Below, piece by piece: positions 3,151 through 52,800 of a stretch of DNA of 64,000 nt (position 1 is the first letter of the stretch; each line of letters starts with the position of its first letter). This DNA is from Zootoca vivipara. Its lineage: Eukaryota. The position numbers and the translations under genes were made by a program. The notes under the pieces were generated by a model. The model saw only the letters and a program-made list of their open reading frames with translations. It did not search any database and was not told the origin of the DNA. The stretch spans positions 40,300,001-40,364,000 of the forward strand of contig NC_083278.1 in the NCBI RefSeq assembly GCF_963506605.1, read 5' to 3'.

Positions 3151-3725
3151 GGCGCAAGTTGGGGTGGGGAGAAGCTCAATAAATATTTGTGCAACTTGGT
3201 GACCTACAGCTAGTTTTCCCCACTTTTGTTATGCCTGCTCTCTCTGCAAAGTGGGTAGCGAGCCACTTGTTTTCTTAATACAGTATCTGCACAGTGCCTA
3301 GAAAACTTGAGGTGAGGTTATATATAAGTTTTGAAACTTCTGGTAGTGAAACTCCCACAGCGAGAGGGCTGGGATTATATTTGATGGAAGATGTAAGGCC
3401 TGCTGCTGCTCACATTGTCATTTACCTGGAAATAAACTGCTCTGGGATTGGATGGATTTACTGCCAGGTAAAGTATGGATATGAACAGACTATGCAACAT
3501 GTTCCTTCTTTCAGGCTGGAGCTGAAGCTGGGACCCAGATGGGCTTGAAATACACATAAATAATATGCTTTCAAAGTGGTGGGGGAAACTCATTAACTGG
3601 CTAAACACTCTGGCTGTAGTTGTGGCAGGATTTGTAGGAGTTGAAATGCATGTGCTGCTCCTATGGTTTATTTACACATATACAACCTGAGCCTAAGAGG
3701 AAAGGGCTCACAGCATAACACCCTA

Positions 3726-3929
3726 GTTACATGTAGGTAGCCGTGTTGGTCTGACATAGTCGAAACAAAATAAAAAAATTCTTTGCAGTAGCACCTTAGA
3801 GACCAACTAAGTTTGTCATTGTTATGAGCTTTCGTGTGCATGCACACTGTGTATCTGAAGAAGTGTGCATGCACACGAAAGCTCATACCAGTGACAAACT
3901 TAGTTGGTCTCTAAGGTGCTACTGGAAGG
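3726..3929. mobile_element. Penelope-like retroelement pLTR remnant, inverted pair
   Basis: Minus-oriented segment (3726-3848) followed by a plus-oriented copy (3849-3929). Flanked by the 14-bp TSD AGCATAACACCCTA (3712-3725 / 3930-3943). Same family at 14121, 22854 and 51008. Confidence 0.75.
3851..3888 (+). ncRNA. Minimal hammerhead ribozyme motif (Penelope-type)
   Basis: GTAT-CTGAAGA-A-GTGTG-CATG-CACAC-GAAA-GC-TC-ATAC: stem I GTAT/ATAC, CUGANGA and GAAA cores, stem II, palindromic AGCU stem III. Predicted cleavage after C3884. Confidence 0.7.
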
Positions 3930-5763: not shown

Positions 5764-12853
<7,090 letters not shown>

Positions 12854-13688: not shown

Positions 13689-14120
13689 TTCTAAGGCTAT
13701 GTGTACCTATCATAAAGGTGGCAAAGCTGTGGACTTCCAGGTGTTGCTGGACTACCACTTCCATCACCTATAAGCTCATTGGTCTTGCTGGCTGGAGCTG
13801 ATGGGAATTGGACCCCAATCAGATATAGCTGTGCCCTGTTAAAGTGCATAAAAGTGTTGAGCCACAGCAAATCGATCCCCACCCCCCATGACTTTTTGCA
13901 GTTAGGAAAGTGATTTGGAAATGAAGTGAAAGATGCAGAATGATGATTGATGGACACGAAAGCACTATAAGCTCAATAAAGAGCAGACACTGTATAATCT
14001 GCATCAGCAAGGCCAGGGGGCAGGGCGGGTCTTGTCGCCTGGCAGCCCAGGACCTCCATACACACTGCCCAAGCTTGCATATCAAGAGGTCACTGCTGTG
14101 CTGCTAATACAGCAAAAACA

Positions 14121-14270
14121 GTTACAGGTAGGTAGCCGTGTTGGTCTGAGTCGAAGCAAAATAAAAAAATTCCTTCAGTAGCACCTTAAAGACCAACTAA
14201 GTTTTTATTTTGGTATGAGCTTTCGTGTGCATGCACACTTCTTCAGATACTGAAGGAATTTTTTTTATTT
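14121..14270 (-). mobile_element. Penelope-like pLTR remnant with short inverted end
   Basis: Same family as 3726-3929. TSD TACAGCAAAAACA (14108-14120 / 14271-14283), extendable by GTTAC. 14248-14270 is an inverted copy of about 14158-14180. Confidence 0.75.
14213..14250 (-). ncRNA. Minimal hammerhead ribozyme motif
   Basis: The reverse complement is identical (38/38) to 3851-3888. Predicted cleavage after the minus-strand C at 14217. Confidence 0.7.
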
Positions 14271-19600: not shown

Positions 19601-22600
19601 AAAACTTATTAAGGTGATTTTGTGAATCTAAACATTTGTTTAACTATTTTTATACTGGTTTCAATGAACTTACTGAGACTTATCAACAAATTAAAGCAGT
19701 CTCTCAAGCAACTCATGAGGTCTGTGGGTATTAAGCAGCCTAACTCTACTCAGGATTGCAGCCTAAATTATTGTTTTGTGTATAGTGTTTACCAAATTAA
19801 TAAAAACCTACATTTCAGACCACAAAATCATTTAAAGCCTATTCTCTCAGAGCCATCTAAAGCCACATATCACTCAGTGATAAACCTTTGATTGGTGTCC
19901 ATTTTCTCATTATACGTTGAAATCTCCCCCAACTGCTTCTCCAGACCTGCACAATTGGATCATAATTTTGTACACCCAGTTGATGAACACAAAATATAAC
20001 ATTTGATTTAAATGTAATGAAAACTTGGCGAGCAGATGACACTTTAATGCATTCAGCTATAATAAGTAGAATTTAAAATATGCCTCACATAAATGGCTTT
20101 ATAAGCATAGCTACATACATATATTATTGCTTCAAACTGTGATAGGCCCTTTTGAGGGCCCCTGAAAAATGAAAATGCTTTGTTCTAAAGAAAGCCTCCT
20201 ATGTGTGATTTTGAGGTTGTTATATATGTTAGATAGATTTTAAGAAGGTGGTTAGACTAGTTCATTGCCACTAGTGACTAGTATTCCAAGCAACAAATCT
20301 CTGTGTGTCTGCAGCCTAGTGCTGCTGTATTATGCAGACTGCTTGTGTAAAAGGGATTATTGGTGTCAAGGCTGAGGGCTGCATATTTGCTGCTTTAGAG
20401 TATGTGGAGCAGCTTGCCTCCTCTCTCTGATGAGAATGAGTAGCTTCATGAAGCTATGTGCACTTCAAAGTTCCTGCAGCCACCTGGAATCAGGCAATAG
20501 CAAAAAATCTAATCCATATTATTCAACTCCAGGCAGCAGTCCATTTATGCTATTTAAGAACAAGTAAATTACAAAAACTATGAACATTTTGTGTCTTTAA
20601 GCTACATTATGGCAACGCAACATTTTGTTCTTGCAGTGGTGCTTCTCAGCCCCTTAATCTGTTTCCTCAAGTAATGTTTAAGAAAAGGGCACCTTGTTTT
20701 TTAAATCTATTAAACTGTTGGATTTTGTTTCATGTGTATAGATTCTGTAGCATGGTGTTTCTGGATGCCCAATGGTAATATTATTTTTATAATTAGTTAA
20801 GGGGCTTGAAATAACTTACATCAACATTTTTTCTTTTTAGCTTTCTATTGAAAGACTGCTTGACACAAGCAATCCATCTCTGGACACTATTAAGATGCAA
20901 GTTTATTTTGATATGAACTATATCACTCGAGGTAATCAATGTGTAGAATAATTTAATGTGAATATGGTGATGGTGCAATCCTACGCACGCTTACTCAGAA
21001 GTCACACTGTGTTCTAGTAAACTTATATGGGATTGCAAGCGCAATTGCAAGCATAAATTCTTGCTACATGTGAAAATAGTACTGTAATACATTGGAACAG
21101 TAAATCCAACAATATGTGAACATGCTAAGAGATGCAATCTATAAGGAGATTATAAACTAAATTAGCTCTTTAAAAAAATATTCGACATTTACCTAATATT
21201 TGAACAGTTAATATTTATTGTGCATTTAAAATCCTGGAAGGGGATTTGTGTTTTTTTAAAGGTTATATCCTGTACCAAATAAATGGAACTGATACATTCC
21301 ACTGTCTCAATTTACTATAGCTGAGTTTGTGCAATTGTGTTATATAGTGCAGTCCTATGTGTGATTACTTGTATGTAAACCTCAGCATGTTCACCCGATA
21401 ATGCCCTAGGATGGCAGCCCTAAAGTAAGAGCCTGGGAGGATTTAAGCATGTGAAATGTGGGCATTTTTAACTAGCTAAGTTGAAAGCCTGTTGATGCCT
21501 ATGCACGTTTTTTGGCTTCTCTGTGCCTTGGGTTACAACTGATGTGTAACTGAAGAACTATCAAGTCTAGTGAAATCTGCATTACTATGTGGTCTGCTGA
21601 AGCATGCAGGTGTCACCAGTGATATAACTGGCTTTTGTATCACCCTCTGTGTTTCCTCTTAGTTGAGTTGATCAAGGAACAGCATCGTGTTTTGGATTCC
21701 CGCCTTGCTCCAGTGGGCAGAGAAATTACAGATAGCCGTGCTCGTACCAGAGAGGAATTGGAAAGTGTTTATCGAAAAATTGTCAGCTATGTCCTGCTGC
21801 GCTCTGGCCTTGGATCCCCTACAGACATCAAGGTCATTAGAGAGGCAACTGGTTGGTAACTGTTTCAGATATATGCTGTGAAGAGTTTTGCCAATATGCA
21901 CTTTTCTGTGGTAGTCATTGCATAGGAACTGAGCAACAAGCGGTGGCTAATTGGGGACTATCTTTTTCACTTTCTTTTGTTTTGAAGTATTTGTACGCTG
22001 CCTTTGTGCCTCAGTATGTACCTGTTTGTACGCAGAGTATGTACACCTCCCCGGTAAAAAAAAATCAAAGAAACCCTCAAAGGCACGTATACAAATATCT
22101 GCTCCAGACAGCAAAACCAGGCTGAGAATAGAATACAACCTGAGAGCCAGAAAAAGACACTTCACATATCCAGCAGGCCAAATGCAAGCAACCATCCAAC
22201 CCTTTCCTGAAGATATGGAGATCCTCTGAAGCCGCATTCAACACAGCATGAAGGGATGCAGACAGAAGGGCACAGCCCCTGTACTGCAGGATCCTAGCTT
22301 AGGTGTATTAACCAAGTCACAAGTGTTGTGTCAAGGGAGCAGCGGTGGTGTTCTTGGCACAACAACTGCCCAGGCTGGCCATTCACCATTCACGTCCTTA
22401 CTCACTGTGGCCTTCCATTCAAACTAATTGCTGATAAGGGCATTATACTATTCTGAGATTCTAGGTAAGTTCATGCAGAACTTGTAGCCTGGTGGTCTGC
22501 TATAATGCCTTGCACAACTCCATACTTTCCTCCAAGCCTCCACTCCCCTGATGATATTCCTTGACCACTTACTCTTGCATGTCATTCATCTCCATCCTAA

Positions 22601-25600
22601 TCCCTCCTTACACTCTTCAGGTCCTTAGCCCCTTCAGCTCCCAAGTCCAAATTATTCAGACTCTTACCTCTTGGAAGGAGAATTAGTAGCGCAGAATTAG
22701 CAAATGTCTCCCAATGGCCTTATTCACTGACATTTATACTTAAAAAAGTGTGTCAAGAGTCTCTAAATTCTGTAGAAGCTCTTGACACTCTTTTTTTTTA
22801 AGAGGGAGGGGTAGGGCAGTTTAACACACGTAGCTTTGTCCATAAGGATTTCAAGACCAACTGCAGTCATTAACAGTCATTAACAGTCATCAACAGGTTT
22901 ACCACTCCTATCAGCCCATCACCCATTCCCATCACCCTCCCCACCCTCTGACTATACATAAGGGTCTGGTGACTTCTGTTCCAGTGTATCTGAAGAAGTG
23001 TGCATGCACACGAAAGCTCATACCTATGACAAACTTAGTTGGTCTCTAAGGTGCTACTGGAGGGATTTTTTATTTTTATTCATAAGGATTTCAGTTTATG
23101 ATGTTAGTTTATTTATTATTCTCTTCAGCTGTCATAAGATTTAGCATTTTATAGCTCTTGATAAGTTAAGATGCTTTATACTTAACTATGTCCAGAGGAG
23201 AGGGGCATGCAAAGGGGGCTGCAACAGGAAGAAAAAGATTGGGAAATTCCCATTCCACAAGCAGAACATTCACAGATCTTAGGATTCAACTCATGATCTC
23301 CAGCATAGTGGGATCTCAAATGTGAATAAGTATCTTACTATACTAGGGGTGTTTCCATGGAAAATCCAGTAAGATACACCCACACTAGTTACCTGCTGGT
23401 GATACCTAAATGAATGATTTGCAAAATGAAGCCCTGATTGGAAGCACCCAATGTATAGCTCAGAGTGAACAAATTGTGGTATCGTCCCCAAATAACTTCT
23501 AGTGCTCACCTTTCTGTTTTATTTGATGTTACAGCTGTTGTCTGCCCTTTTTTTGGTATGACATTTTCCACATTTAATATTTTACAGCTGCCTTGCAGAG
23601 TGTATTTCCTCAAACAGAACTTGCTGCTTTCCTCTCCCTTTCAAAGAAGGAGAAAGAGAGGCAGTTGAAGGAGCTCACCATGATTGTCACAGGAATTCGG
23701 TTATTCAACAAGGAGTGTGGGAAGGGAGGAGAAGGCATTGATGAATGTAGGTATATACCGGTACTGTTGTTGTTTAGTCGTTTAGTTGTGTCCGACTCTT
23801 CGTGACCCCATGGACCATAGCACGCCAGGCACTCCTGTCTTGCACTGCCTCCCGCAATTTGGTCAAACTCATGTTCGTAGCTTCGAGAACACTGTAGCTT
23901 CGAGAACACTGTACCGGTACTAGTAGGTGCTAAACTTGATGATGTGTTTGTATTAGCCATTTAAGCCACTTTCAAATTTGCAAAAATGTTCAGTGCTGAC
24001 TGATCACCAATTTTGTAACTAGTCCCATCTAATTGCTTCATGCAAATACTGCATTTACCATAAGTTGATCTTCCAAATGAGATGTGATAACATGCTGTTC
24101 AGCTGCAGGTTAACTTTATTGAATATCTTCAAAATTGATAATCTGTACCACATTATCTATTAAATTGGCTTGTTGTAAAGCCTTCCCTAGGATTTTTATA
24201 TATGGTATTTATATAAAATAGAAAGCCATGTTAACCTCCTGAGAGAAAAAAGAAATGTTTTTAGTCTCACCATGAGGCTAACTTTTAATAAGTTTCATAT
24301 TAGAAAAATAGTGTGGGGTTTCATAGGTGACAACATACTACTTCAGATTCTTATTTTTGGAACTAGGAAAAGCATGGTGGAAAAGTCAGTTAACATATGA
24401 CAGTTTATTGACTAAAACTCAGCAATTTTAAAAGGTTATTAACCCAAACCAGGATCCAAAGATGCCAGCAATGTGTCCTTAAAAGTTATTTTGCAGATGC
24501 CCAGTCTTGTCTGTGTTAGGATCTCTTACTCACAAGTAAGACCCTGGTAGAGACAGGTGCCCAACTGGCATGTTCTCTCCCTCCTAGTAGATCGTTTGGG
24601 AGCTTCAAATTCTTTCTTCAGCCTGAACATCACAGTGACTGATGCCAACTGACATCAGCACACTTACGGATCCGCAGATATTGCGCAATTGCGTAACAGA
24701 ACTCAGTAGCTCAGCATTTGGCTAATCTGTGTTTATTTACATATAAACACACACGGAGCACTGCAACATGGCTCCCTCTCTCTCTCTAGCATCAGGCAGC
24801 AAAGGGAAAGGACAAAGGACAATAGTCCCACTTCAGGAAACACAGTAACACAAACATCCTGTTTCCGTCACTTCCCACTCTGTGGAATGTAAAACATATA
24901 CAGTCATGTGATAGACAACAATCCCATGAATGCAAACACAGGGAAATAACAGTCTGCAGTCATTCAAACTATGTTGGATGCTCTTCTGAGGTTCTCTCAG
25001 TCCTCAGCATAGCTGCCAAGTTTTCCCTTTTCTCGCGAGGAAGCCTATTCAGCATAAGGGAAAATCCCTTTAAAAAAGGGATAACTTGGCAGCTATGGTC
25101 CTCAGGAGAGACCTTTCAGGACATGCAAGGGGCTTCAAGAGAAAGGGAACCCACAAAAGCCTTGGTGTGTTCATATGGAAGGCTTCATGCATCTCTTTGG
25201 ATGTCAGCCCTGTTTATTTTAGAGAGGAATAGGTGGGGAAAATGCTTGTGGTTAGTTACTGAATTTGAGGTTGGCATGCTCAGTAATTACTGCCATGCCC
25301 CTTCTATATTTCAAACCAACCCTGTGTCAACAGTACCAGCTATTCTGAATGAAGCTATCCCAGCAGCCAACCACCATATAGAAATAGAACTGCAAGCTTC
25401 CAAGGATCTGGCGTACCAATACACAGCCTTGATTGAAATGATGCACCTGAGTCAAAATGCTGAGATAGAACTTAAAACGACAATGTTAAAAGAAGTCCTG
25501 TACAACGTGAGACAACATGAGGCTTTCCTTTGCATCATTATGGTGAGATTGTTTTATACTTTGCATCCCTTCTAGAATGCTGGTATATGCATTAATTGTG

Positions 25601-28600
25601 CCCGTCAGCTTTTCGTATACTTATAACTATGCTTATTGAATTTATATATTGCCTTTCATTTGAAGAACACAGGGCAGTTTGCAACATAAAAAATAAAACA
25701 AAAACACAAAATGCATAACAAAACAAAAAACGCCTATAATCCACCCACGCCCCTGAGACATTTAAAAGACCACAGATTGTTTAATCAGCGAATGGCCTGG
25801 TTGAAGAAGAATGTTATTGCTTGGTGCCTAAAGATCTGTAATGAAGGAGCCAGGTGAGCCTTCCTGGGGAGAGCATTCCACAAACAGGGAGCCACCATAG
25901 AACAGGCCTGTTCTCATGTTGCCGCCCTCTGGACCTCTCGTGGAGGGGTTACACAAAGAAGGGCCTCAGCTGATTATCGTTCCTTTGGTACATCTCTTTA
26001 GACACTAGGCAAAAACATGCCTCTTCTCCCAGGCCTTTGGCTAATTAAACAATCTGTGGCCTTTAAACTGTGGCGGTGGGGGGGGTATTGTTTTTATTTG
26101 TCACTATGGAATGTATTTTTGTGTTTTTCTATTGCAAACTGCCATGTGATCTTTGGATGAAGGGAAGTATAGAAACTGTATTATTATTACTGGTATTTTA
26201 TTATTCACCTCCCTGGCACAGCTAGCTGCCCCCTCCCAACTATGTTGCCACCGGATGAAGAAGAGCCAAGTGGGGAGTGGGAGGTTCAATTTAAGGAACC
26301 AACTTTCAGTTAGTAGAGAATTGTACAAGGTTCCAAGTTGGACAGAACTCTTTTCATGCACAGTGGAAAAGAAGTGTCATTCTCTGCAGTACATGTCCAG
26401 ATGACTGAGAATCTAATTGGAGATTGTCAATGTGTATGTGTATTCCACCCTATATTTCATTGAAAGAGCTCAAGATGGCATACATGGTTCTCTCCCTGCC
26501 CCCTGCTTTGTCCCATTGTTTATCCTCACAACAACCCTGGGACGTTGGTTAGTCTTGGAGATACTGACTGCCCCAAGGCGACTCAATGAGCTTAGGTAGA
26601 TGTGGTAGATTCAATGAACTGTGGAAATGTCCTGAATTTCCATTGGTAATCTGCTGTATGCTGTCTTTTCAGTCTGATGTGATCACATGTGCACAAGAAG
26701 TTGATATGATGCAGAAGCAGTTTGCAGCGCAGATGGAGCACTTAAAAAGTATTGTTCAGGCAAAGACAGCGGTGCCTACGTCTCTGGTTTATGTAAGTTC
26801 CTAAATTGCAAGGATGTAAAAAGAAGGACTAGCTTGTGTTTGTGTTCATATATTCTGTACTGTACCTGCTTTCTTATATATACCATGCTGAGTTCGCAGC
26901 ACAGACCTCTTTTACACCAAGAGATAGAGAGAGTCTGGATCCTTGCCTTTCTGTTCAGCTAGTCCAAGGGAGTTTTAAGCTTGTTTTTCTAATAGCAGTT
27001 CCCTGGTGCCACATGACAAACTGCTTTTGAAATGGAGGAATATTTCAAATGCTCTCTGTATTGTATCTTTGAAGTCAGCTATTCAAAGCAAAATAAAACA
27101 AAAACTACTTGGGCAATGGAGCTTATTTGTGTCTTCCTAAGCACCTCAGCGAACTCTTAGCCTAAGTGATACTTATTTTGAATTGTGTAATCATTGGTCA
27201 ACATGTAAACTGGCCAAACGCTCTAACCCAGGCATGTCAAACCTGCGGCCCTCCAGATGTTTTGGACTACAATTCCCATCTTCCCCAACCACTGGTCCTG
27301 CTAGCTAGGGATCATGGGAGTTGTAGGCCAAAACATCTGGAGGGCCACAGGTTTGATATGCCTGCTCTAACCATGTCTTTTTAAGAAAGCATAGTAACAG
27401 GTCATCACTGTGCTTCAAGGAACATCACCATCTTAGTTACAATGTCCTTTTCTTTTGAAACTTCTTAAACTGGCCAGACATTCCACCTGGTTTAAGAATC
27501 CTATTATGAGTCCTGTTCTTTCTCTTGTGCCTGTGCAGCAGCTGTTAATTAATGTTCCTTTAACAACCTTTTGCAGCTCTCCACCTACTCACCATATTAA
27601 CATTTCACACCTGTCTTTCTTTCCCTCTTTGGGCCTAACTTGATGACATGGCAGGATATATGTGATCAGATATTTTGCAGGTAGGGTTGCCAGACTCAAT
27701 AGAGGACAGGACTTCTGTGCCTTTAATTGCCCTGCTCTTTTTTGAGTCTGGAAACCTTAAAGAGAAACCAGCAGACCCTTTGTTCAATTTCCAAGCAAAG
27801 GGTCTGCTGGTTTCTCTTTAAGGTTTCCAGACTCAAAAGAGAGCAGGGCAACAGAAGTCTTGTCCTCTATTGAGTTTGGCAACCCTATTTGCAGGTTTTT
27901 TAAAGGTGGTGTGGGACTGAACTAGATTGGAGTCATAGTGCTAAGAGAGGGGTCTTGACCCCCCCCCATGATGTTTTCCCAATTTCAACTGCCCCCAGGA
28001 ACTACTATTTGCTACATACAACAAAGCATACAGGTGCCCATATGATACCACAGAACATATGGGGGTGGGGTATTCAGATCGGGAAAATAATCCCAATTAT
28101 TATAACCCAGCCAGCATCTTCATGCAGCTTTATTTCAAACAAACAAAAAAACAAACAAACCTGCAGTACATCAGATCTCCTGTCATTGTAGCAAGTTTGT
28201 CTCTAGGATTTTACACAGAGCTGCTAAAAAGTACTGTAAGTTTGTACAGATAGCTTTCTGTCAATTTAACAGCATGAAAATTCCCTGTTCTCTGTTTAAT
28301 TTTCATCAGAGGAATCTATTGCTTTATTGTATACAAGGAGTATATATCCTGGCACTATGATAGTCTTTGGTCCTATGCTGTGCTAGAAATAAATTAAAGA
28401 AATCAGGAATGCATGTTAAGGAGAGGAGAGAGTGTAAATATTCCTTCAAAAATCCATTACAATTACTGGTAAAATTGTTAGGGTTTAAGATCATGAATTG
28501 CACCCCTGCTTTTCTCTCCTCACCTGTGGAGTATATATAAAGAACAGCAGACTACATATATTTGGCAAGGGGGCAGCGTAATTTTGCAGACATAATGTAA

Positions 28601-31600
28601 ATACAACTTCAATTTCTTTGTTTTTTCCCCCTCCCAGCCTATATTTATTGCACTTTCTAACCTTTGGACCAGTTTTCAAGATGAGATCCTGGTGCTGAGT
28701 TTCCTCAATAACTTGACTATCAATCTCCAGCAGTTCCTAGGAGCCCATTCATTGATTTTTCCAGAAGATGTGATGGAATCTCTTCTTGAAGATATTATTG
28801 TAAAAACTGATGAGGACAGGTTAAAAGAAAGTGCTGGTACTAAAACCATAGTTATGCATTTTGAATTAATGTATAAAGTCCATGGAATACTCTTCCTATC
28901 TTCAGATTCTTAGCCCTTTGAGAGCTAGAGCTTCACTTTTATTGCTAAATAAGGATCATGTGTCATAAAAACCACTGAGCCTCTTCGGCTTGCTGATTGG
29001 AAGGTTGGCGGTTCGAATCCCCACAACAGAATGAGCTCCCATTGCTCTGTCCCAGCTCCTGCCAACCTAGCAGTTCGAAAGCATGTCAAAATGCAAGTAG
29101 ATAAATAGGAACCGCTACAGCGGGAAGGTAAACGGCGTTTCCATGTGCTGCTCTGGTTTGCCAGAAGCAGCTTTGTCATGCTGGCCACATGACCTGGAAG
29201 GGACCCAGGTGGCGCTGTGGTTAAACCACTGAGCCTAGGGCTTGCTGATCAGAAGGTCGGCGGTTCGAATCCCTGTGACGGGGTGAGCTCCCGTTGCTTG
29301 GTCCCAGCTCCTGCCAACCTAGCAGTTCGAAAGCATGTCAAAATGCAAGTAGATAAATAGGAACCGCTACAGCGGGAAGGTAAACGGCGTTTCCATGTGC
29401 TGCTCTGGTTTGCCAGAAGCAGCTTTGTCATGCTGGCCACATGACCTGGAAGGGACCCAGGTGGCGCTGTGGTTAAACCACTGAGCCTAGGGCTTGCTGA
29501 TCAGAAGGTCAGCGGTTCGAATCCCTGTGACGGGGTGAGCTCCCGTTGCTTGGTCCCAGCTCCTGACAACCTAGCCACATGGGTACAGGAATGTAATCTC
29601 CGAGGGAAACCTTATTCAGCAAAAGGTTACCTGGGTCTTTGTTTTTTGCTGCAGCTGTTTTGATGAATTGTGTTATTGTTTGGGGAAAAATATGTTTTAA
29701 AATACTGTAAATGTTTTGTGAACTGTTCTGAGGGCTAAAATTGTGGATATAAGTAATAAATAAAATCTGCCCTGAACCTTCCCACCTAATATTTGAAATA
29801 CTAGATTATTCAGTACCTCACTAGGTACTTGTGCCATGGGGTTCAGTGGTCTCAACCTTCCCCAGTAACCATGTGTTTACATGAGTATGATGTGGGGTGT
29901 TTCTAGGTAGGACCTCAATGTTGCAAATGGGTTACTGAGATACAGCAAATGGGTCCTTGGCAACAGGTTTTTAACATCATATTCCCCCCTGAAAGGGAAC
30001 ATTATGATTAAATGCTGGGGGGTGGGGAAAATATACTCTTGTCCAGGCAATCCCAAACTGCAGCCCTCCAGATGTTTTGGCCTACAACTCCCATGATCAC
30101 TAGCTAAGAGGACCAGTGGTCAGGGATGATGGGAATTGTAGTCCACAACATCTGGAGGGCCGAAGTTTGGGGGTGCCTGCTCTTGTCATTTTGACACCAA
30201 CAATATTGTGTGGATATTGCAACTAATAATAAAAATCTTCATGCATGAGCAATTTTCTCCTGCAATAAACACCTGTCTAGAAGCACTCCCATTTTTTCTG
30301 ATACTGAAAATATATCCTAAGCTGGGTTTTTTAATATTTCAGATAGCAAAGTAAATCCCGCTGACTTTACCGTAGAAGAATGGCTCTTCCCAGAAACCAC
30401 CATTAATTTCAGCCAAGTGCAAATTCAGTACCATGGGTTTTGTGCTTACACTTTTGCCGTGAAAGATGGTCTTCTTGTCCCAGGTTTGCCAGTTGTAGAT
30501 AAGTCCCGTTTGCTTTTTAAGAGCATTCTTACTGCTTCATATTATGTTTTAGTTGTAGACTGCATTGCTTTATTTTTATAGAAGTTTGGTGTATAAATAA
30601 AATAAAAATACCTGACAGATAAGGAGCTTGCCACCCAAACTACTGGGGCTTGGTTTATAAATGGAAATGGAGAAGAATTTGAGGCAGTAGGCATGTGGGG
30701 GTGAGGAGGAGGGAAGGAACAGTGGCAAGCATTTGGTAGGAGGGAGATAAAGCTGAGGAAGGGAATTAGAAAATTGGTATACACAGTGATCGGTGGTAGT
30801 TGGGACAAAGACACTACCAAAAGGAAGACCATACAACATATCAACAAGACAAAAGGGCAAAGCCAATCAGTGCCAGAAAGTGATCTATTGGAGACTAATT
30901 CTCTTGGTTGGAGAGAAGAGGGATGTCAGAGCCTCCACTGCTTCAACAGAACCCTGTTTAGAATTCCATTTAGAGCATAAATTTGCATTTGTTTGTCCAG
31001 CAAATAAACTAGAATTTAACAGTGCAGTTTTTAAAAGGGTATTACTATTTTTACTGATGCAATCCACATTATGCAGGATTAGCTATGAAATACTTTAGTC
31101 TTGTTCTTAGTTCATAGAAAGTGTTTTGCTGGGTGAGGAGCATGATTTAAAGTTGACTGAATTTTCAAACAGGTTAGACACTAGAGCCATCCTTAATTTC
31201 AAACGTGAAAACACTATAATCTGCATCAGGAAAGTCATGAAGAAATCCTGTGTTCTTTTGTGCTTTGTTGTCAGCGAACCCTGCTGTTGGAATCCTGAAG
31301 TTTCGGGAGAAATATTATGCCTTTAGTTCCAAGGAAGCGGCATATAATTTTGCCAAGAATCCAGAGAAATGCGTTAAGATGGTTGCAGAAAAAGCAAAGG
31401 AATCTGCAGAGCTCATTCAGCTGCTTGAACTTCATCAGCAATTTGAATCCCTTGCCCCTTATTCTCAGGTATTCAACACATTTATCCTTTACTTATTTAA
31501 GCCACTCCAAGAAAGCTTCATTCTAGAGAAAAGCCAAATAAGAGGCAATCTGGTAGAACTTATGCATAGCATGGAGAAAGTGGATAGAGGAAAGTTCTTC

Positions 31601-35339: not shown

Positions 35340-38300
35340 CTACACATTGGGAAGGTCTCCTCCTGTGTGGACTTTCTGGTGTCTGCGAAAATGTGCTGAC
35401 TGAGAAAAACATTTCCCACACTCCAAGCACTTGTAAGGTTTTTCTCCTGTGTGGATCCTCTGATGGATCACAAGGTATGACTTCTGAGAAAATGATTTTT
35501 CACACTCCAAGCATTTGTGGGGTTTCTCTCCTGTGTGGGTTCTCTGGTGCCCCCTAAGGTTTTCTGCTAAAGTAAATGACATTCCACAATCTAAACATTT
35601 ATGTGGCGTTTCTCCTGTGTGGACTCTCCTATGAACAGTAAGGCCTGATGAGAAAGAAAAACATTTCCCACACTCTCCACATTCATATGGCCTCGCTCCT
35701 GTGTGGATTCTCTGGTGTACATGAAGGTATGATTTGTGGGCAAAACATTTTTCACACTCCATGCATATGTAGGGCTTTTCCCCAGTGTGGATTTTTTCAT
35801 GCCGCTTGAGGTGTTGTTTCTGAGAAAATGATTTTTCACACTCCATGCATTTATAGGGTTTCTCTCCTGTGTGGGTTCTCTGGTGCCCCCTAAGATTTTG
35901 CGCTAAAGTAAATGACATTCCACAATCTAAACATTTATGTGGCTTTTCTCCTGTGTGGACTCTCCTATGAACAGTAAGGCCTGATGAGAAAGAAAAACAT
36001 TTTCCACATTCTCCACATTCATATGGCCTCACTCCTGTGTGGGTTCTCTGGTGGTTCACAAGGGTGCCTTTCCTTGAAAAACATTTGCCACACTCCAAGC
36101 ATTTGTGGGGTTTCTCTCCTGTGTGGGTTCTCTGGTGCCCCCTAAGACTTTGTGCTAAAGTAAATGACATTCCACAGTTTAAACATTTATGTGGCTTTTC
36201 TCCTGTGTGGACTCTCCTATGAACAGTAAGGCCTGATGAAGTAGAAAAACATTTTCCACATTCTCCACATTCATATGGCCTCACTCCTGTGTGGGTTCTC
36301 TGATGTTTCACAAGGGTGCCTTTCCTTGAAAAACATTTGCCACACTCCAAGCATTTGTGGGGTTTCTCTCCTGTGTGGGTTCTCTGGTGCTCCCTAAGAC
36401 TTTGTGCTAAAGTAAATGACATTCCACAGTCTAAACATTTATGTGGCTTTTCTCCTGTGTGGACTCTCCTATGAACAGTAAGGCCTGATGAAACAGAAAA
36501 ACATTTCCCACACTCTCCACATTCATATGGCCTCACTCCTGTGTGGATTCTCTGGTGTACATGAAGGTATGATTTCTGGGGAAAGCATTTTCCACACTCG
36601 GTGCATTTGTAGGGTTTCTCCCCAGTGTGGATTTTTTCATGCCGCTTGAGGTGTTGTTTCTGGGAAAAGCATTTTCCACACTTGGTGCATTTGTAGGGTT
36701 TCTCCCCAGTGTGGATTCTCTGGTGCCCCCTAAGACGATGTGCTAAAGTAAATGACATTCCACAGTCCAAACATTTATGTGGCTTTTCTCCTGTGTGGAC
36801 TCGCCTATGAACAGTAAGGCCTGATGAAACAGAAAAACATTTTCCACACTCTCCACATTCATATGGTCTCATTCCTGTGTGTATCCTTTCATGTACACGA
36901 AGCTCTGACAGGCTAGCAAAGCATTTCCCACACTCCATGCATCTGTAGGGTTTCTCTCCCGTATGCACCTTCTGATGTCTGGGGAGGTGCTGTTTCTGGG
37001 AAAACCGTCTCCCACACTCCACACATTCATACGGTTTCTCCCCTGTGTGGATTCTCCGGTGGATTACAAGTTCCGATGCTGAAATAAAGCTTTTCCCACA
37101 CTCCACACATTTATGGGGCATCTCTCCAGTGTGAACAGTCTGATGCCTCAGAAGGACAGCCTTCTCATAAAAACATTTCCCACACTCTCTACATTCATAG
37201 GGCTTCTCTCCTGTGTGGATTCTCTGGTGTCGCCTGAGATTTGTTTTTGAGGGGAAACATTTTCCACACTCCAGGCACTTTTGGGGCCATTCTCCTGTGT
37301 GGGTTCTCTGATGGATTACAAGGCCTGACTTGTGAGCAAATGATTTCCCACACTCCAGGCATTTATAGGGTTTTTCTCCAGTGTGCGTTCGCTGATGGTT
37401 AACAAGTTTTGACCTAACAGAAAAGCATAACCCACACACACTGCATTTGTGGGGCTTCTCTCCTGTGTAGACTTTACAGTGTTCACAAAGCTGTGATCTC
37501 TTGGGGAACCCGATCCTACTCTCGCCATATTTGCAGTGTTTTTCTCCCATGTGGCCTCTTTCATGTTTCACAAAATCTGAAAGTTGGGAAAAACCTTCCC
37601 CACACTCCAAACTGCGATATGAGTTATCTCCTCCTGTATGGATGTTCTGGTGGATCAGAACGATGGGCTGATGAACAAGAACCTTCCTGAACTCCGAAGA
37701 CTTGGGGGGTTCCAAATGGCTCGCAAGCTCCGAATTCTGACCCAAACATTCCCCGCTCTCAGAGTTTTCCTGGATCTTCTCCCCTGTGTGGATTCTCTGG
37801 TGTCTGGCAAGAGCCAATCTGAAGGCAAAGCATCGGCCATACTCTGGGCTGAAATGTTTCCTCCTCAAGTTTCCTGCTGAGAATGAACAAAGCGGAATCA
37901 GGGTTAGAAGATGGCAGAGAAGTAGCCTCAGAATCCAACCTGAGATGGTTAGACAGATGATGCATGAGAGATGGAGGTCATACCACTTCTCTCCCCGCTC
38001 ACCACTGCATATGGTATAACCAGTGGAAGAGCTATTTTTATTTATTTTGTTGATGAAGTAACAGAGAACATGTTTCTTGCCAATTCCCATCAACAGAGGA
38101 GAAACTCTGAAACGACTCGTCATCCCACCCAAACCGCCTCACCTGAGCTGGTGTCCGAAATGGCAGCTCCTGTTCCGTCTGAGATCTGATATTGTGGGGG
38201 CCTGGACTCTTCTGTTTGCTCTGCGCTGGGGACGAGGCTCATCTTGGGAAGCAGCAGGGCTACGCGGGAAAGAAGTGAGAAGAAGGAAGAAGAGGAGGAG

Positions 38301-40870: not shown

Positions 40871-43800
40871 TCTCTGCTCTTGTGTTAAGGAGGCGAAATA
40901 GTCTAAGGTTCATCGATGGAAGATAATGCTTCCTCCCTCTTTAAAGACATTGGCATGTCGGGGTCTCGCCAGGGCCGCTGGCAGGATTTGTGGGGGTTGA
41001 ACCCAAAATGTTAATCACAACGAATTTCCGCTCCCCATTCCCTCTGCTTCAGGTTGCTTAGGCGAAAGAATAGTCCCCCCTTGAAGCTCCCTCCGAGCAT
41101 GGAAATATCGCAGACTTCGTCTGTGAACACAGACTTGGAAACCTTTAGCCGCTTCTCGCATCATCCTTTCATGCAAACGGTGTCTGATGATGCTCCGTGT
41201 CACTCACTTGGCAACCTATTATAATAGCTGTTCTTGTGCAATGACCCTGGTCTAGAAGGCAAGCTCTTTCTCTAGATCCATGCGTATGTATTAATCGGTC
41301 TGAAATGCTAGGAGAGAGGTTTTCACATTAGAAAATAAATGCATCTAGGGATACATGAAATTGTAATGCAAAGAAGTGGCTTGCCTATCGTTGTGGTGTT
41401 AGAAACGTGCTTTCTCCCGTTTCTGAAAAATTGGGCCAAATAGACTTCTTTACGCATAGCACTTTTGTGTGTGCGTTGTTATAAGGACGTTAGATGATCT
41501 CTGTTGGATCACACCAATGGCCCATCTAGTCCAACATCTTGTTCTCACAGAGGCCAACCAGATGCCTATGGCTAGCCTGCAGGTAGGAGCTGAGGGCGGC
41601 AGCACTCTTCTCAAGATTCCCAGTAACTGAAATTCAGAGGAATAGTGCCTTCTACAGTGGAGGTACAATAGCCATTGATAGGTTTAGGTAAAGGTAAAGG
41701 GACCCTTGATCATCAGGTCCAGTCGTGACCAACTCTGGGGTTGCGGCGCTCATCTCGCGTTATTGGCCAAGGGATCCGGCGTACAGCTTCCATGACAAAG
41801 CCACTTCTGGCAAACCAGAGCAGCACAGGGAAACGCTGTTTACCTTCCTGCTGTAGCTATTCCTGCTATTTATCTACTTGCACTTTGACGTGCTTTTGAA
41901 CTCAGGGCCAGCTCTACAGCCAGGCTGGGTGGCGCAGGGCGCCATGGCGCCGGCCCGCCAGGGGGGGGCGTCACGCAGCCGTGCCTGCCCACCCGCCGGC
42001 CGCGCAGCAAGCCCGCCAGCCCGCCCGTCACACAGCAGCGCCCTCGGCGACCGCGCTGCACGCTGAGCCCGGCCACCCACCCACCCGTCGCGCTGGAAAA
42101 TGGGGCGGCGGCGGGATCCGTCACACCAGGGCGCCAAAGGTGCTTAAGACGGCCCTGTTTGAACTGCTAGGTTGGCAGGAGCTGGGACCGAGCAACTGCC
42201 GACCTTCCGATCGGCAAGCCCTAGGCTCAGTGGTTTAACCCACAGCGCCACCTGCGTCCCATTGATGGGTTTATCCTCCATGAATTTGCCTGTTCTTTTT
42301 TTATAAAAAGCAATCTGAGATGGTGACCATCACTACATCTTGTGAGACCAAATTCCAAAGTTTAACTATATATGTGCTGCCTGAAGAAGTACTTTCTTTT
42401 GTCTGCCCTGAAGCTTCCAACATTCAGCTTCCTTGGATGGCCCTGGGTTTCTAGGATGAGAGAGGAATCTGCTTTCCCCACACAGTGATAATTGCATCTT
42501 TTGCAGATAATTCTGCTGTTTGCATTTAGTTTGATATACACCTGAATTAGGCTGAAGGAAATAGAGTTATATTGTACTCAATTTAAATTACTCAGGATGT
42601 ACTCAGTTTAAATTAGTGCAACAGTGCATGTATTACTTGTACCTTGCAGGGATGTTTACACAGTCAAGGTGTATGAGTAACAGGATTTAGTAATTCCCAG
42701 TCATATCAGAATATGGTGTAATGATTCATGCATTCACTGTTGAGTTAATAACGAAATAAAGGTTTATACAGTTAAAGATAAATTGTTTAATCAACAGTCC
42801 AATTCAACTGTAACTATGTTATTTTTGGTGGCCAGAGACTAGATCAGGCACCCCCAAACTGCGGCCCTCCAGATGTTTTGGCCTACAACTCCCATGATCC
42901 CTAGCTAACAGGACCAGTGGTTGGGGAAGATGGGAATTGTAGTCCAAAACATCTGGAGGGCCAAAGTTTGGGGATGCCTGGACTAGATGATGGCTGTTCT
43001 ACTATACATCTTATGAAGAATCTGAAGTTCCTTGATTAGTAGCTTCTTATTTGCTGATGCTAAAACCAGTATGTGGAAATAATTTCATTTACTGTATTTC
43101 TGTTGGCCTTTGGTTTCAAGAACAGTTATAGGTGCCAGATGAGGTACCATTTTGAAAATAGCCTACAATTATCTAGACCAGAGCTTTCCAAACTCTGTGT
43201 CGTGACATGTTAGTGTGTCAGCTGCAGTGTGTCATGCGAACACTCCCCACCCTCCTCTCTGGGCTGGGAAGGGGTTAATTTAACCTCCAGTTTGCTAATA
43301 AAACTGAATTACTGTGTCACGAAATGATGCATATCTAAAAAGTGTTCCACCAACATGAAAAGTTTGGAAACCTCTGATCTAGAGAGCCGAGAGTGCGATA
43401 AGGCACTCTCCCACACCAGTTTGAAGGGCCTTTGAGCCCTGGCCCCACATTAGCCCTTCTGACAGGGGATGAGCAGGGCTACTTTGGCATGCTAATCAAT
43501 CGGTTAATGCTTATCAATTAAACAATTAATTAAATGTATATCCCTCCCTCCCAAAGGAGCCCAGGGCAAACACACTAGTGATAAACCAATGCAGTTAAAA
43601 ATAAAACATGTTCAAAACATCCCAAACCAATTAAAAACATATGAAAGCAGTAACATAGCCTTATTTCAGAGTTGCCAGGAACAGTATCTTTTGGCCATCA
43701 AATGCCTTGGTAAACAGGAACATTTTAAAGTTCCTCCTGAAACTTATTTGTGAAGGAGACAGATGTGCCTCACCAGGGAGGGTTTTCCACAATTGAGGAA

Positions 43801-49800: not shown

Positions 49801-52800
49801 TTTGGTGCCTACTGAAGGCCTTCAACAAGTTGAGACCTTTCCCAGTCTGCATCTGTATTGGAACCATTTTAAAGATATTCTTTGGATTTTGTTTTTTCAC
49901 TGTTTTAGCACTTGTTTGGCACCGTACGCTCCTCTGGGAGAAAGGGTAGTATATAAATGTAAGTAAGTAAGTGAATGAATGAATGCCCTCATTGCATTTC
50001 AAGAATTAGCTAAGTTGTAGTATCCTGCAGCAGCTGGTTGAATTAGCAGGAGAGGAAAGGAGAAGCTCTGTTAAGCGAGTGGATGACCGCCTGTGCTACA
50101 TTGGCTCTCACTCTCTTTTCCCCAGAGACAATTGAGCACACAGGGAGTCAAATTCTGTAGTGCTGCTTGCATAGCACTGGCAGATGTTGCCAGATGGCCT
50201 AAGTCATCTTTTGTTGTTGCAGTAAATGAACGATCTGGCTTGGCTTCTGTAAGTGACTGCAGCTATAAATAAACTTCCTCTGGTTTTATTTGTTCTTTAG
50301 ATGGAGCAGAGCCCATTGATAGGCTTCGGTGCGATAGCCATTGCTGTTTTATGTTCAGGATTTGCAGGTAAAACCTTGTGGTTAAAGTTATCTTCAAGTA
50401 GCAGGAATTTATCTGTGACTGTGGCTAGTCCGACAGTGAAGGCCCCCTCTTCCTTTACCTTGCCAGCTTAGAAAACACCATAGCACAGCTCCTTCCCATC
50501 CTTCTCATGTAACATGGGAGAAGCTCTGGGAAGTGTCTTGGGTCACATCCACGCCATTTAAAGCACTCTTATACCACTTTTGGGACGCGGGTGGCGCTGT
50601 AGTGTAAACCACTGAGCCTTGGGCTTGCTGATTGGAAGGTTGGCGGTTCGAATCCCCACGACGGGGTGAGCTCCCGTTGTTCGGTCCCAGCTCCTGCTAA
50701 CCTAGCAGTTCGAAAGCACATCAAGGTGCAAGCAGATAAATAGGTCCCACCCCAGTGGGAAGGTAAAAGGTGTTTCTGTGCACTGCTCTGGTTTTGCCAG
50801 AAGCGGTTTAGTCATGCTGGCCACATGACCCGGAAAAACTGTCTGCAGACAAATGCCGGCTGCCTCGGCCAGTAAAGCGAGATGAGCACCGCAATCCCAG
50901 TCGTTTGCGACTGGACTTAACTGTCAGGGGTCCTTTACCTTTGTCTTTTTATACCACTTTAGCGGCCGTTGCTTCTCCCAAAGAATCCTGAGAACTGTAA
51001 TATGTTTCTTCCAGTAGCACCTTAGAGACCAACTAAGTTTGTCATAGGTATGAGCTTTCGTGTGCATGCACACTTCTTCATGTTCTTCATGCATGCACAC
51101 GAAAGCTCATACCAATGACAAACTTACGGTAGTTGGTCTCTAAGGTGCTACTGGAAGGAATTTTTTATTTATTTTTTGTTTCAACTACGTCAGACCAACA
51201 CAGCTACCTACCTGTAACATGTAAGATGTTTGTTGCACAGCTACAATTCCCAGCACCCTGAACAAACCCAGTGCCCAGGAGCCTTTGGGGGAAACCAAAA
51301 CCGTTAAGAGTGCTTTAAGTGTACATTGTAGATGCGACCTATGTCATAGCTCAGGTCTGCCCAGCCTAGGTCTCTTTTGTAAGACAACTCCTATAATCTC
51401 TGAGCATCAGCTCTACCTGTTAGGGCTAATGGGACTCAGGTGACAACACCTGTTGGAGGGCATCAGGTTGGGGAAGGCTGCTGTAGCTGTTCCCCACCTC
51501 AGCATCACCTCTTCCACAAACTTGCATGGTGGGAAGGTGGTGCAAGTTGACCCTGGGTTTCTGATCTCTGTGGTGTGCGGTAAATTCCCGAAATCAAATT
51601 TTAATGTATGGCAGGAGCTGTACGTTGTTTCACCTCTCCCTTCTCTTCCCTTTCAGGGGTATATTTTGAGAAAGTGCTGAAGAGTTCAGATACATCTTTA
51701 TGGGTCAGGAACATTCAGCTGTACCTCTCTGGGATCGTAGTGACCTTGGCTGGTGTCTACATGTCTGATGGCGCTAATGTAATGGAAAAGGGCTTCTTTT
51801 ATGGCTATACCCGATACGTCTGGTTTGTCATCTGTAAGTATCTGATTGTCTTTTATCTTCAGTTCTACTTTTTTCTTCTTCAAGCTGGGGCCAGGGTGTA
51901 TGAGATCAGCTTGGGGAAATTATGGGGCAGAGACATCACTGAGCACAGCAAATTAAATTCAGTGGTCTACTGTCCTGCAGGAAATAATTCAGAAGCATGC
52001 ACTTTCCAGGGGAGTCTGACCAGTTCTCTCCTGAATACTGGCAAGAACTTAAGAATCTTGGGTGACTATCAGCTAGACTGCATGAGGGATATGGGAAGAG
52101 ACAGGCCTTATTCCCTGGGTTACAAAGAAATAAGTATTCAAGGTTAAGACTAACTGCTGTGCTGGCTTTCCAAAGGGACTTTGGGTAGCATAAGAAATGC
52201 AGGTCCTGTCAGGTAGGGCAGGTTAGTCACGCTGGTGCCATTCAGAGAATAAGCCAAGATGTAAACAAGCCTTTTTCCTTGATATGTAGGGATGTAAACA
52301 GCATTGCTGGTGCAACCTAATAGGTATAGACTAATACCAGGTTTGGTGTACCATGGAACAAGGGTATGCCACCTGGAACACAAATTTAATCCTCTGAGGT
52401 TGTGATACATGTCCCAAATGGACAGTATCTTCCATCCTTCAAAAAGCTATTGTCTTATTCTATGGTAAATAAGAAAAAGATGTCAGACACTTTATTAACA
52501 GGGATATCTCCTTTTGCTGTCTAGTCCTTTCCAGCGTTGGAGGTCTCTACACTTCAGTTGTTGTTAAGTACACTGACAACATTATGAAAGGCTTTTCTGC
52601 AGCCGCCGCCATCGTTCTCTCTACCGTTGCCTCAGTCCTCCTCTTTGGCTTACAGATAAGTACGTTGCTTTTGGCCATAGTCCACAATCTTAGGTGGCGC
52701 TCCTTTGGCGCGTTTGTTTGGCATGGGCTTGAATAACTGTTGTCAGCTAATTGTATTATTGTATAGTATTATAATCTGATGTTGTCAGCCCACAAACAAA

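Follow-up and report, generated by a model that had tools for sequence, protein, structure and literature searches.

The window analysed here is a 64-kb stretch of the Zootoca vivipara genome in which an intron of CFAP206, read on the + strand, carries a 227-bp insertion in sense (Table 1); the exons on either side of it are also on the + strand and correspond to the open frames 21623-21856 and 23578-23802. The preliminary description of this DNA had assigned the intron to CFAP206, and the assignment was borne out by the downstream of the two exons, which matches CFAP206 in the PDB (E 1.9e-7), and by a later exon further downstream, which matches the Pfam family FAP206. Pfam gave no match for either exon flanking the copy, and the upstream exon had no match in the PDB. 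A second insertion of the same repeat lies just upstream of a SMIM8-like DUF4500 coding exon, and another lies inside an intron of a nucleotide-sugar transporter gene that is SLC35A1-like. Between CFAP206 and the transporter gene, the - strand (about 35343-38138) holds an open frame of 932 codons that looks zinc-finger-like and contains an 84-bp repeat. The window also holds a near-perfect long fold-back of about 260 bp (27655-27913), probably a MITE, which gave a spurious MIR821 match under the gathering score, and a MITE-like hairpin repeat family of about 140 bp (27222-27369, 30037-30205, 42820-42987 and 8683-8743).

Table 1. Features of the CFAP206 intron copy and of the other insertions of the family (window coordinates).
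Feature	Position	Strand	Details and basis
CFAP206 intron carrying the copy	21852..23587	+	GT...AG bounds, predicted from sequence
Left target-site duplication	22841..22853	+	13 bp
Solo 5'-truncated pLTR insertion, without 3' tail and without ORF	22854..23080	+	BLAST against other copies and the full element; bounds from target duplication
TATA-like box of pLTR (putative)	22953..22961	+	30 nt upstream of initiator-like A; sequence; similar box in all subfamilies seen
Initiator-like site; transcription probably starts near 22983	22979..22985	+	Copy 5' ends; near-invariant T22979, T22980, A22983, T22985
Minimal type I hammerhead (predicted)	22986..23023	+	Sequence, folding, published descriptor and consensus (PMC4209133)
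Stem I	22986-22989/23020-23023	+	4 bp
Hammerhead core CUGAAGA	22990-22996	+	
Extra A before stem II	22997	+	
Stem II	22998-23002/23007-23011	+	5 bp, CAUG loop
GAAA	23012-23015	+	
Self-complementary AGCU, what remains of stem III	23015-23018	+	
Predicted cut	after 23019	+	
3' block of the pLTR (conserved) with T-rich end; of the family's two 3' end points, the shorter one	23031..23080	+	3' ends of 30 full-ORF loci
Right target-site duplication	23081..23093	+	13 bp
Head-to-head two-arm insertion	3726..3929	.	Tailed - arm truncated in stem II; full + hammerhead 3851-3888
Tailed short copy, starting at hammerhead 5' border	14126..14270	-	Hammerhead 14213-14250
Head-to-head two-arm insertion	51008..51218	.	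Hammerhead truncated in both arms

All four insertions had been described as flanked by target duplications. This holds exactly for three of them (14 bp at 3712/3930, 18 bp at 14108/14271 and 13 bp at 22841/23081), while at the 51-kb insertion an exact search gave no duplication of 7 bp or more, although the sequence shows one of 12 bp if a single mismatch is allowed (50996-51007 / 51220-51231). What had been seen at 51 kb as two truncated halves was recovered by self-comparison as two head-to-head arms (51006-51080 and 51090-51218), both truncated. The self-comparison found neither an inverted partner nor a second copy of the intron motif between 14262 and 51001, in agreement with the earlier statement that the intron copy stands in sense without an inverted partner. 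The sequence 'AGACCAACT' at the 5' end of the insertion was considered as a micro-inversion; this was ruled out, as similar sequence is native to the pLTR.

The insertions share a 38-nt motif, found at 38/38 identity three times in the window, at the coordinates first reported, with a fourth match (51048-51085, -) that has 3 mismatches; none of 100 shuffled sequences contained any match to the 38-mer. Every part originally listed for the motif (a 4-bp stem I, CUGAAGA, an extra A, a 5-bp stem II with a CAUG loop, GAAA, GC and UC) is present, in type I order with the CUGANGA, GAAA and UH core, and the extra nucleotide before stem II, G10.1-C11.1, the palindromic 15.2-16.2 and the short stem I all match the consensus given in PMC4209133. 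A hammerhead scan, which the preliminary description had proposed, succeeded with a script version of the minimal descriptor published in the same paper and not with the Rfam covariance models, whose 33 matches at E <= 5 across the whole window included no hammerhead family, probably because those models expect a helix III and the motif has none. In a descriptor scan of 1.23 Mb of genome DNA, partly chosen for this family, no second hammerhead family was found, only point variants. Taken with the linked RT and GIY-YIG ORF described below, these results support the notion that the motif is the minimal hammerhead of a Penelope-like element (PLE), as predicted from its sequence.

Such minimal pLTR hammerheads are known from metazoan PLEs, the closest row in supplementary Fig. 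S3 of PMC4209133 being an almost identical motif of Chrysemys picta bellii, with the core, the extra nucleotide, G10.1-C11.1, the palindromic 15.2-16.2, a 4-bp stem I and a 5-bp stem II in common. Compared by eye, the turtle row has the same core, one two-sided pair change each in stems I and II, and a different loop II: a 7-nt U-rich loop, as opposed to the self-complementary 4-mer of Zootoca. Cervera and de la Pena (2014; PMC4209133) had already described motifs of this kind and their dispersal as single copies, with monomers that are inactive and dimers that are weakly active, and as a ribozyme the Zootoca motif is ordinary.

The preliminary description had suggested a link between the repeat and a Penelope ORF, and this link is now established by an intact, full-length element (locus L025) that carries the motif in its 3' repeat (pLTR). 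The unit is 3,030 bp long and has a single ORF of 901 aa with RT plus, at its C terminus, a GIY-YIG domain (Pfam RVT_1, E 4.5e-12; GIY-YIG, E 5.9e-5; both over the curated cut-offs). The motif starts 187 nt after the stop codon, and the predicted cut lies 103 nt before the next ATG. The linker between RT and the C-terminal EN, read in the translation, is CX4CxxC, and a CX2-5CxxC linker is given in PMC8557442 as a mark of the Neptune and Nematis clades; the element may accordingly be called one with a Neptune-type linker, a placement that rests on a motif shared by Nematis. The features described for the Neptune clade in that paper, RT followed by GIY-YIG, a pLTR with a hammerhead, partial tandems, inverted 5'-truncated arms and a one-sided 30-40 bp tail, are found here together with the other traits of EN+ PLEs, although no microsatellite target bias is evident in the four window insertions, in which they differ from that clade. 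All of the 50 ORF matches scored, out of 9,993 candidates, were full length and 99-100% identical, and 49 had no stop, so that there are at least 50 near-identical full ORFs, of which at least 49 are intact; judged from these sequences, the family is a very young, autonomous PLE. At L025 (3294-8187) the full-length element is joined to a 1,794-bp inverted copy with 100% identity; the start of the full-length arm lies 4 nt upstream of the predicted cut.

The genome (1.44 Gb) contains 17,895 exact 31-nt cores (8,915 + and 8,980 -) and 20,221 exact 3' anchors of one subfamily group, both of which are lower bounds, confirming the very large genomic pool suspected at the outset; the CFAP206 intron copy is one of about 20,000 stubs of a young family. 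By comparison, 4,000-9,000 copies are reported for coelacanth and Xenopus in PMC4209133, whose motifs are far less uniform than those of Zootoca, while dispersal mostly as single copies of truncated elements, with some opposite-strand pairs, is common to both accounts. Genome-wide, the stem II palindrome forms the centre of a perfect head-to-head joint in 292 insertions (e.g. L127-L129), and joints centred on AGCU are also recurrent; the stem II-centred joints would fit homology joining of two cDNA arms. We also noted pLTR-derived tandem arrays with units of 293 bp (9 units among those listed) and 598 bp (4 units), at G000:C3:91909189-91911659 and G000:C1:2777825-2779681 (L011), with an intact motif in every unit. 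These arrays are retrozyme-like and a natural place for cis dimers, and they resemble the non-LTR retrozymes (bioRxiv 10.64898/2026.07.22.740005) in combining a type I hammerhead with tandem units derived from a PLE pLTR. The window copies, in contrast, are solo or head-to-head stubs with target duplications rather than tandems.

It is very probable that the 227-bp piece is the solo pLTR of a young autonomous PLE with a Neptune-type linker; its hammerhead is probably silent, a lone passenger in CFAP206 pre-mRNA. The strict conservation of the motif, however, would be unexplained if the motif were purely silent, and shows that it is important to the element. Among 38 long arms out of 292 baited on the 3' block and not on the motif, a sample in which one subfamily group is dominant, a second common allele was seen in 0 of 38 motif columns as compared with 36 of 65 upstream pLTR columns, while the columns 3' of the motif were equally uniform. 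In the comparison with flanking pLTR sequence suggested at the outset, the motif was thus better kept than the upstream side but not than the 3' side of this sample. As T22979, T22980, A22983 and T22985 are nearly invariant among variable neighbours, and as the uniform stretch runs through the motif into the 3' columns, constraint appears to begin at the initiator-like site and to cover the leader rather than the core alone; with a 3' flank as well kept as the motif, this constraint need not be catalytic. No base-pair covariation was seen within the Zootoca genome copies (38 long arms; descriptor scan). One might therefore suppose that the fold is kept for protein binding or for a promoter-downstream or primer-positioning role in the leader, its catalytic core being incidental or vestigial. 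This would account for conservation of the whole leader across subfamilies and for the lack of any sign of cutting in reads or genomic ends, and many PLE clades are described as thriving without a hammerhead (PMC8557442). However, all catalytic positions are kept as far as the turtle while stems I and II change two-sidedly and loop II differs, and a homologous motif cuts in vitro with protein (PMC11167929), so we consider a non-catalytic role very unlikely.

The ends of the copies provide information on the RNA from which they were made. Among 30 full-ORF loci, some of which are two halves of one insertion, the 3' end lies 54-71 nt past the cut in 16 cases and 91-109 nt past it in 12, while the remaining 2 run into a tandem; the family has two 3' end points about 37 nt apart, and the CFAP206 copy uses the shorter. 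As to 5' ends, 0 of these 30 loci start at the cut and 25 run at least 110 nt past (upstream of) it, while the other starts lie 4 nt upstream, 6 nt downstream and 82 nt downstream of the cut, and, in two cases, 38 and 42 nt upstream. In a set of 90 distinct exact-core arms (identical copies counted once; 16 loci picked for close pairs; ends below 30 nt cannot appear owing to selection on the exact core), the 5' end falls 30-42 nt upstream of the cut in 43 arms, as against 12 arms in which it falls within the 63 nt beyond. Intron arms chosen blind to the motif behave similarly when scored by eye, with 11 of 46 starting 31-40 nt upstream of the cut and 1 of 46 within 5 nt. A T or C replaces the usual A at position -12 from the cut in 807 (481 + 326) of the 20,221 anchors, and the first 60 of these include 5 breaks exactly at the cut plus one point mutant, 4 breaks each at 1 nt downstream, 2 nt downstream and 1 nt upstream, and 6 at the AGCU palindrome. 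A pile of genomic 5' ends at the predicted cut is thus absent from all three samples (anchors, blind introns and full-ORF loci).

Where the 5' ends do gather there is an initiator-like site, and 30 nt upstream of its A lies a TATA-like box, a distance that can be read by the general spacing rule for TATA boxes and initiators. A splice acceptor was considered as the cause of this pile and rejected, since the youngest subfamily has no AG there and the sequences upstream of the ends are diverse. An arrangement of TATA plus a TCACT initiator has been described in rotifer pLTRs (PMC3846280), and a TATA-less internal promoter for the Drosophila element (PMC2377424). In three RNA runs, no pile of read starts was found at the initiator-like site; the sole pile of read beginnings was at 22964, in one run. 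It comprises 43 molecules that begin 22 nt upstream of the motif and may come from one expressed locus. As the 5' ends gather 30-42 nt upstream of the cut and are not piled at it, the copies were likely made from uncut RNA, and we infer that they are run-off copies of an uncut leader RNA. Our literature searches found no published account of such a 5'-end pile-up in Penelope-like copies.

A comparable picture has been drawn for PAc (Poseidon_Ac) of Anolis carolinensis, in which the ribozyme requires protein to cut and can be dispensed with for insertion in vitro, insertion uses mainly RNA that is uncut, RNA-seq ends are absent from the cut site, and two sites at which reverse transcription starts were identified as the source of the one-sided tail (Frangieh et al. 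2024, PMC11167929). Both systems are lizard PLEs that have a hammerhead where the pLTR joins the ORF and a tail set by two internal starts of reverse transcription (putative in Zootoca), and in both RNA-seq shows no ends at the cut; the use of uncut RNA for insertion is probably also shared. They differ in that PAc belongs to the Penelope/Poseidon clade and, as reported, its ORF starts inside the ribozyme and is cut 26 nt after the ATG, whereas in the Zootoca element the predicted cut precedes the ATG by 103 nt, and the two 3' end points also lie before the ATG. In the model of Cervera and de la Pena, by contrast, the ribozyme would cut tandem or read-through transcripts into unit-length insertion templates. 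The 3,030-bp tandems and the 293-/598-bp arrays do place two motifs on one RNA, and in 2 full-ORF loci out of 30 the start is no more than 6 nt from the cut; but none starts exactly there, the great majority begin far past it, the short copies form no pile there and 17,895 copies span the site, making cut unit-length RNAs very unlikely as the insertion templates of this family.

For the preferred reading, a solo pLTR with a silent passenger hammerhead, the following sequence of events may be proposed: transcription would begin from the TATA/initiator, some 3 nt before the motif; for reverse transcription there would be two alternative starting points, 60 and 97 nt past the cut; begun in the leader, it would reach the 5' end of the RNA within 95-135 nt and run off there, thereby accounting for the abundance of short, motif-only copies; and a start in the 3' repeat would give longer, randomly truncated copies such as that in the CFAP206 intron. 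The template would be uncut in either case. The ribozyme would most likely act only conditionally, on the element's own RNA, either as a tandem dimer through AGCU or, as in the anole element, with the help of the element protein. That such action would be a processing or turnover step off the insertion path is a view for which and against which we would give about equal weight.

The preliminary description had also proposed that two palindromic arms could favour intermolecular dimers, stem II being a perfect 14-nt palindrome. The palindrome is real, but because the arms of a perfect hairpin are always palindromic, it adds only the coincidence of a self-complementary 4-nt loop, expected 1 time in 16 by chance. 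According to nearest-neighbour folding, which ignores tertiary contacts, each of six contexts gave the stem II hairpin (P 0.83-0.95), but only some of them gave stem I (P 0.00-0.70); for two 38-mers, a 14-bp stem II duplex reaches -29 to -30.6 kcal/mol as compared with -11.1 kcal/mol for the double hammerhead, which is no more stable than two monomers (-12.0 kcal/mol). Although it is the dimer that folding favours, the stem II duplex is devoid of helix III, and as helices II and III stack coaxially (PMC4209133), one dimer could not plausibly use both palindromes. Moreover, a single palindromic loop II was spotted by eye among the 44 or so rows of the alignment published there. With a favoured duplex that has no helix III and a palindromic loop that is not kept in relatives, an active dimer promoted by the two palindromes finds no support. 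In the same paper the minimal motif is inactive as a monomer and weakly active as dimers.

If host pre-mRNAs were cut, sense copies might be expected to be depleted from introns, and a strand bias had been suggested as a test. None was found in 1.2 Mb of introns from four genes (parts of three alpha-catenin-family genes and one glypican gene, oriented by family searches): intact-core copies number 10 sense and 5 antisense (95% interval of the sense share 0.38-0.88), a sample of 15 that is blind to mild selection, and all arms number 24 sense and 22 antisense, or at least 28 insertions when arms less than 3.5 kb apart are merged. A 180-kb stretch of one alpha-catenin intron may, we assume, hold a nested gene on the opposite strand; without it, the intact cores number 10 sense and 4 antisense. 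Core changes are not in excess in sense copies either (1 of 130 core positions versus 5 of 234 others). The Xenopus retrozymes are reported to be depleted from introns (bioRxiv 10.64898/2026.07.22.740005), which is a different measure from the strand bias absent here.

Three raw RNA runs with the same species label, unstated in tissue and strandedness, were read at 6% each. They gave 4,461, 2,749 and 2,726 reads on the repeat among about 7.5 million per run, in both orientations, and 96-98% of the aligned reads continue into other sequence. There was no pile of beginnings or ends at the predicted cut in any of the three runs, RNA ends being poorly shown by ordinary RNA-seq, and the dip in depth across the cut is equally small in both orientations. 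The unique flanks in the CFAP206 intron are covered by no read in these samples, which are silent on its expression. The reads argue against bulk cleavage of passenger copies, with CFAP206 itself outside their reach. The intron copy keeps the TATA-like box and initiator-like site (22953-22985) in sense and could thereby act as a cryptic internal promoter, for which the three runs gave no supporting reads.

Cleavage of host pre-mRNA, as first envisaged, is thus unsupported by intron strand, read ends or genomic 5' ends. In this model, pairing with element RNA or other copies through AGCU (and stem II) would expose sense monomers to cleavage in trans and so reduce the output of the host gene. 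It would be served by the large pool of intact motifs in DNA and in reads of both orientations, by dozens of intact ORFs that could supply a helper protein (such help being shown for the anole element, PMC11167929) and by a stem II hairpin formed in every context, but sense copies are not depleted, no ends lie at the cut, stem I forms inconsistently, the double hammerhead gains no stability, one dimer probably cannot use both palindromes, and even cis dimers of a minimal motif cut weakly (PMC4209133), which renders the idea highly improbable. Similarly, it is a long shot that, in germ cells containing the element protein, thousands of sense hammerheads in introns and UTRs form a protein-switched, genome-wide RNA cutting system; if this were true, a transposon burst would trim host transcripts such as that of CFAP206. 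The intron copy is probably harmless to its host gene.

Under the favoured interpretation of a solo pLTR with a passenger hammerhead, the copy ends are a natural footprint that points to transcription starting shortly before the hammerhead, to two starts of reverse transcription and to an uncut template. This footprint bears on the role of PLE hammerheads; its value, like that of the family's youth, is modest. As the family is very young, with at least 49 intact, near-identical ORFs, it would lend itself to the first biochemical work on a Neptune-type element, as a companion to that on the anole Poseidon.
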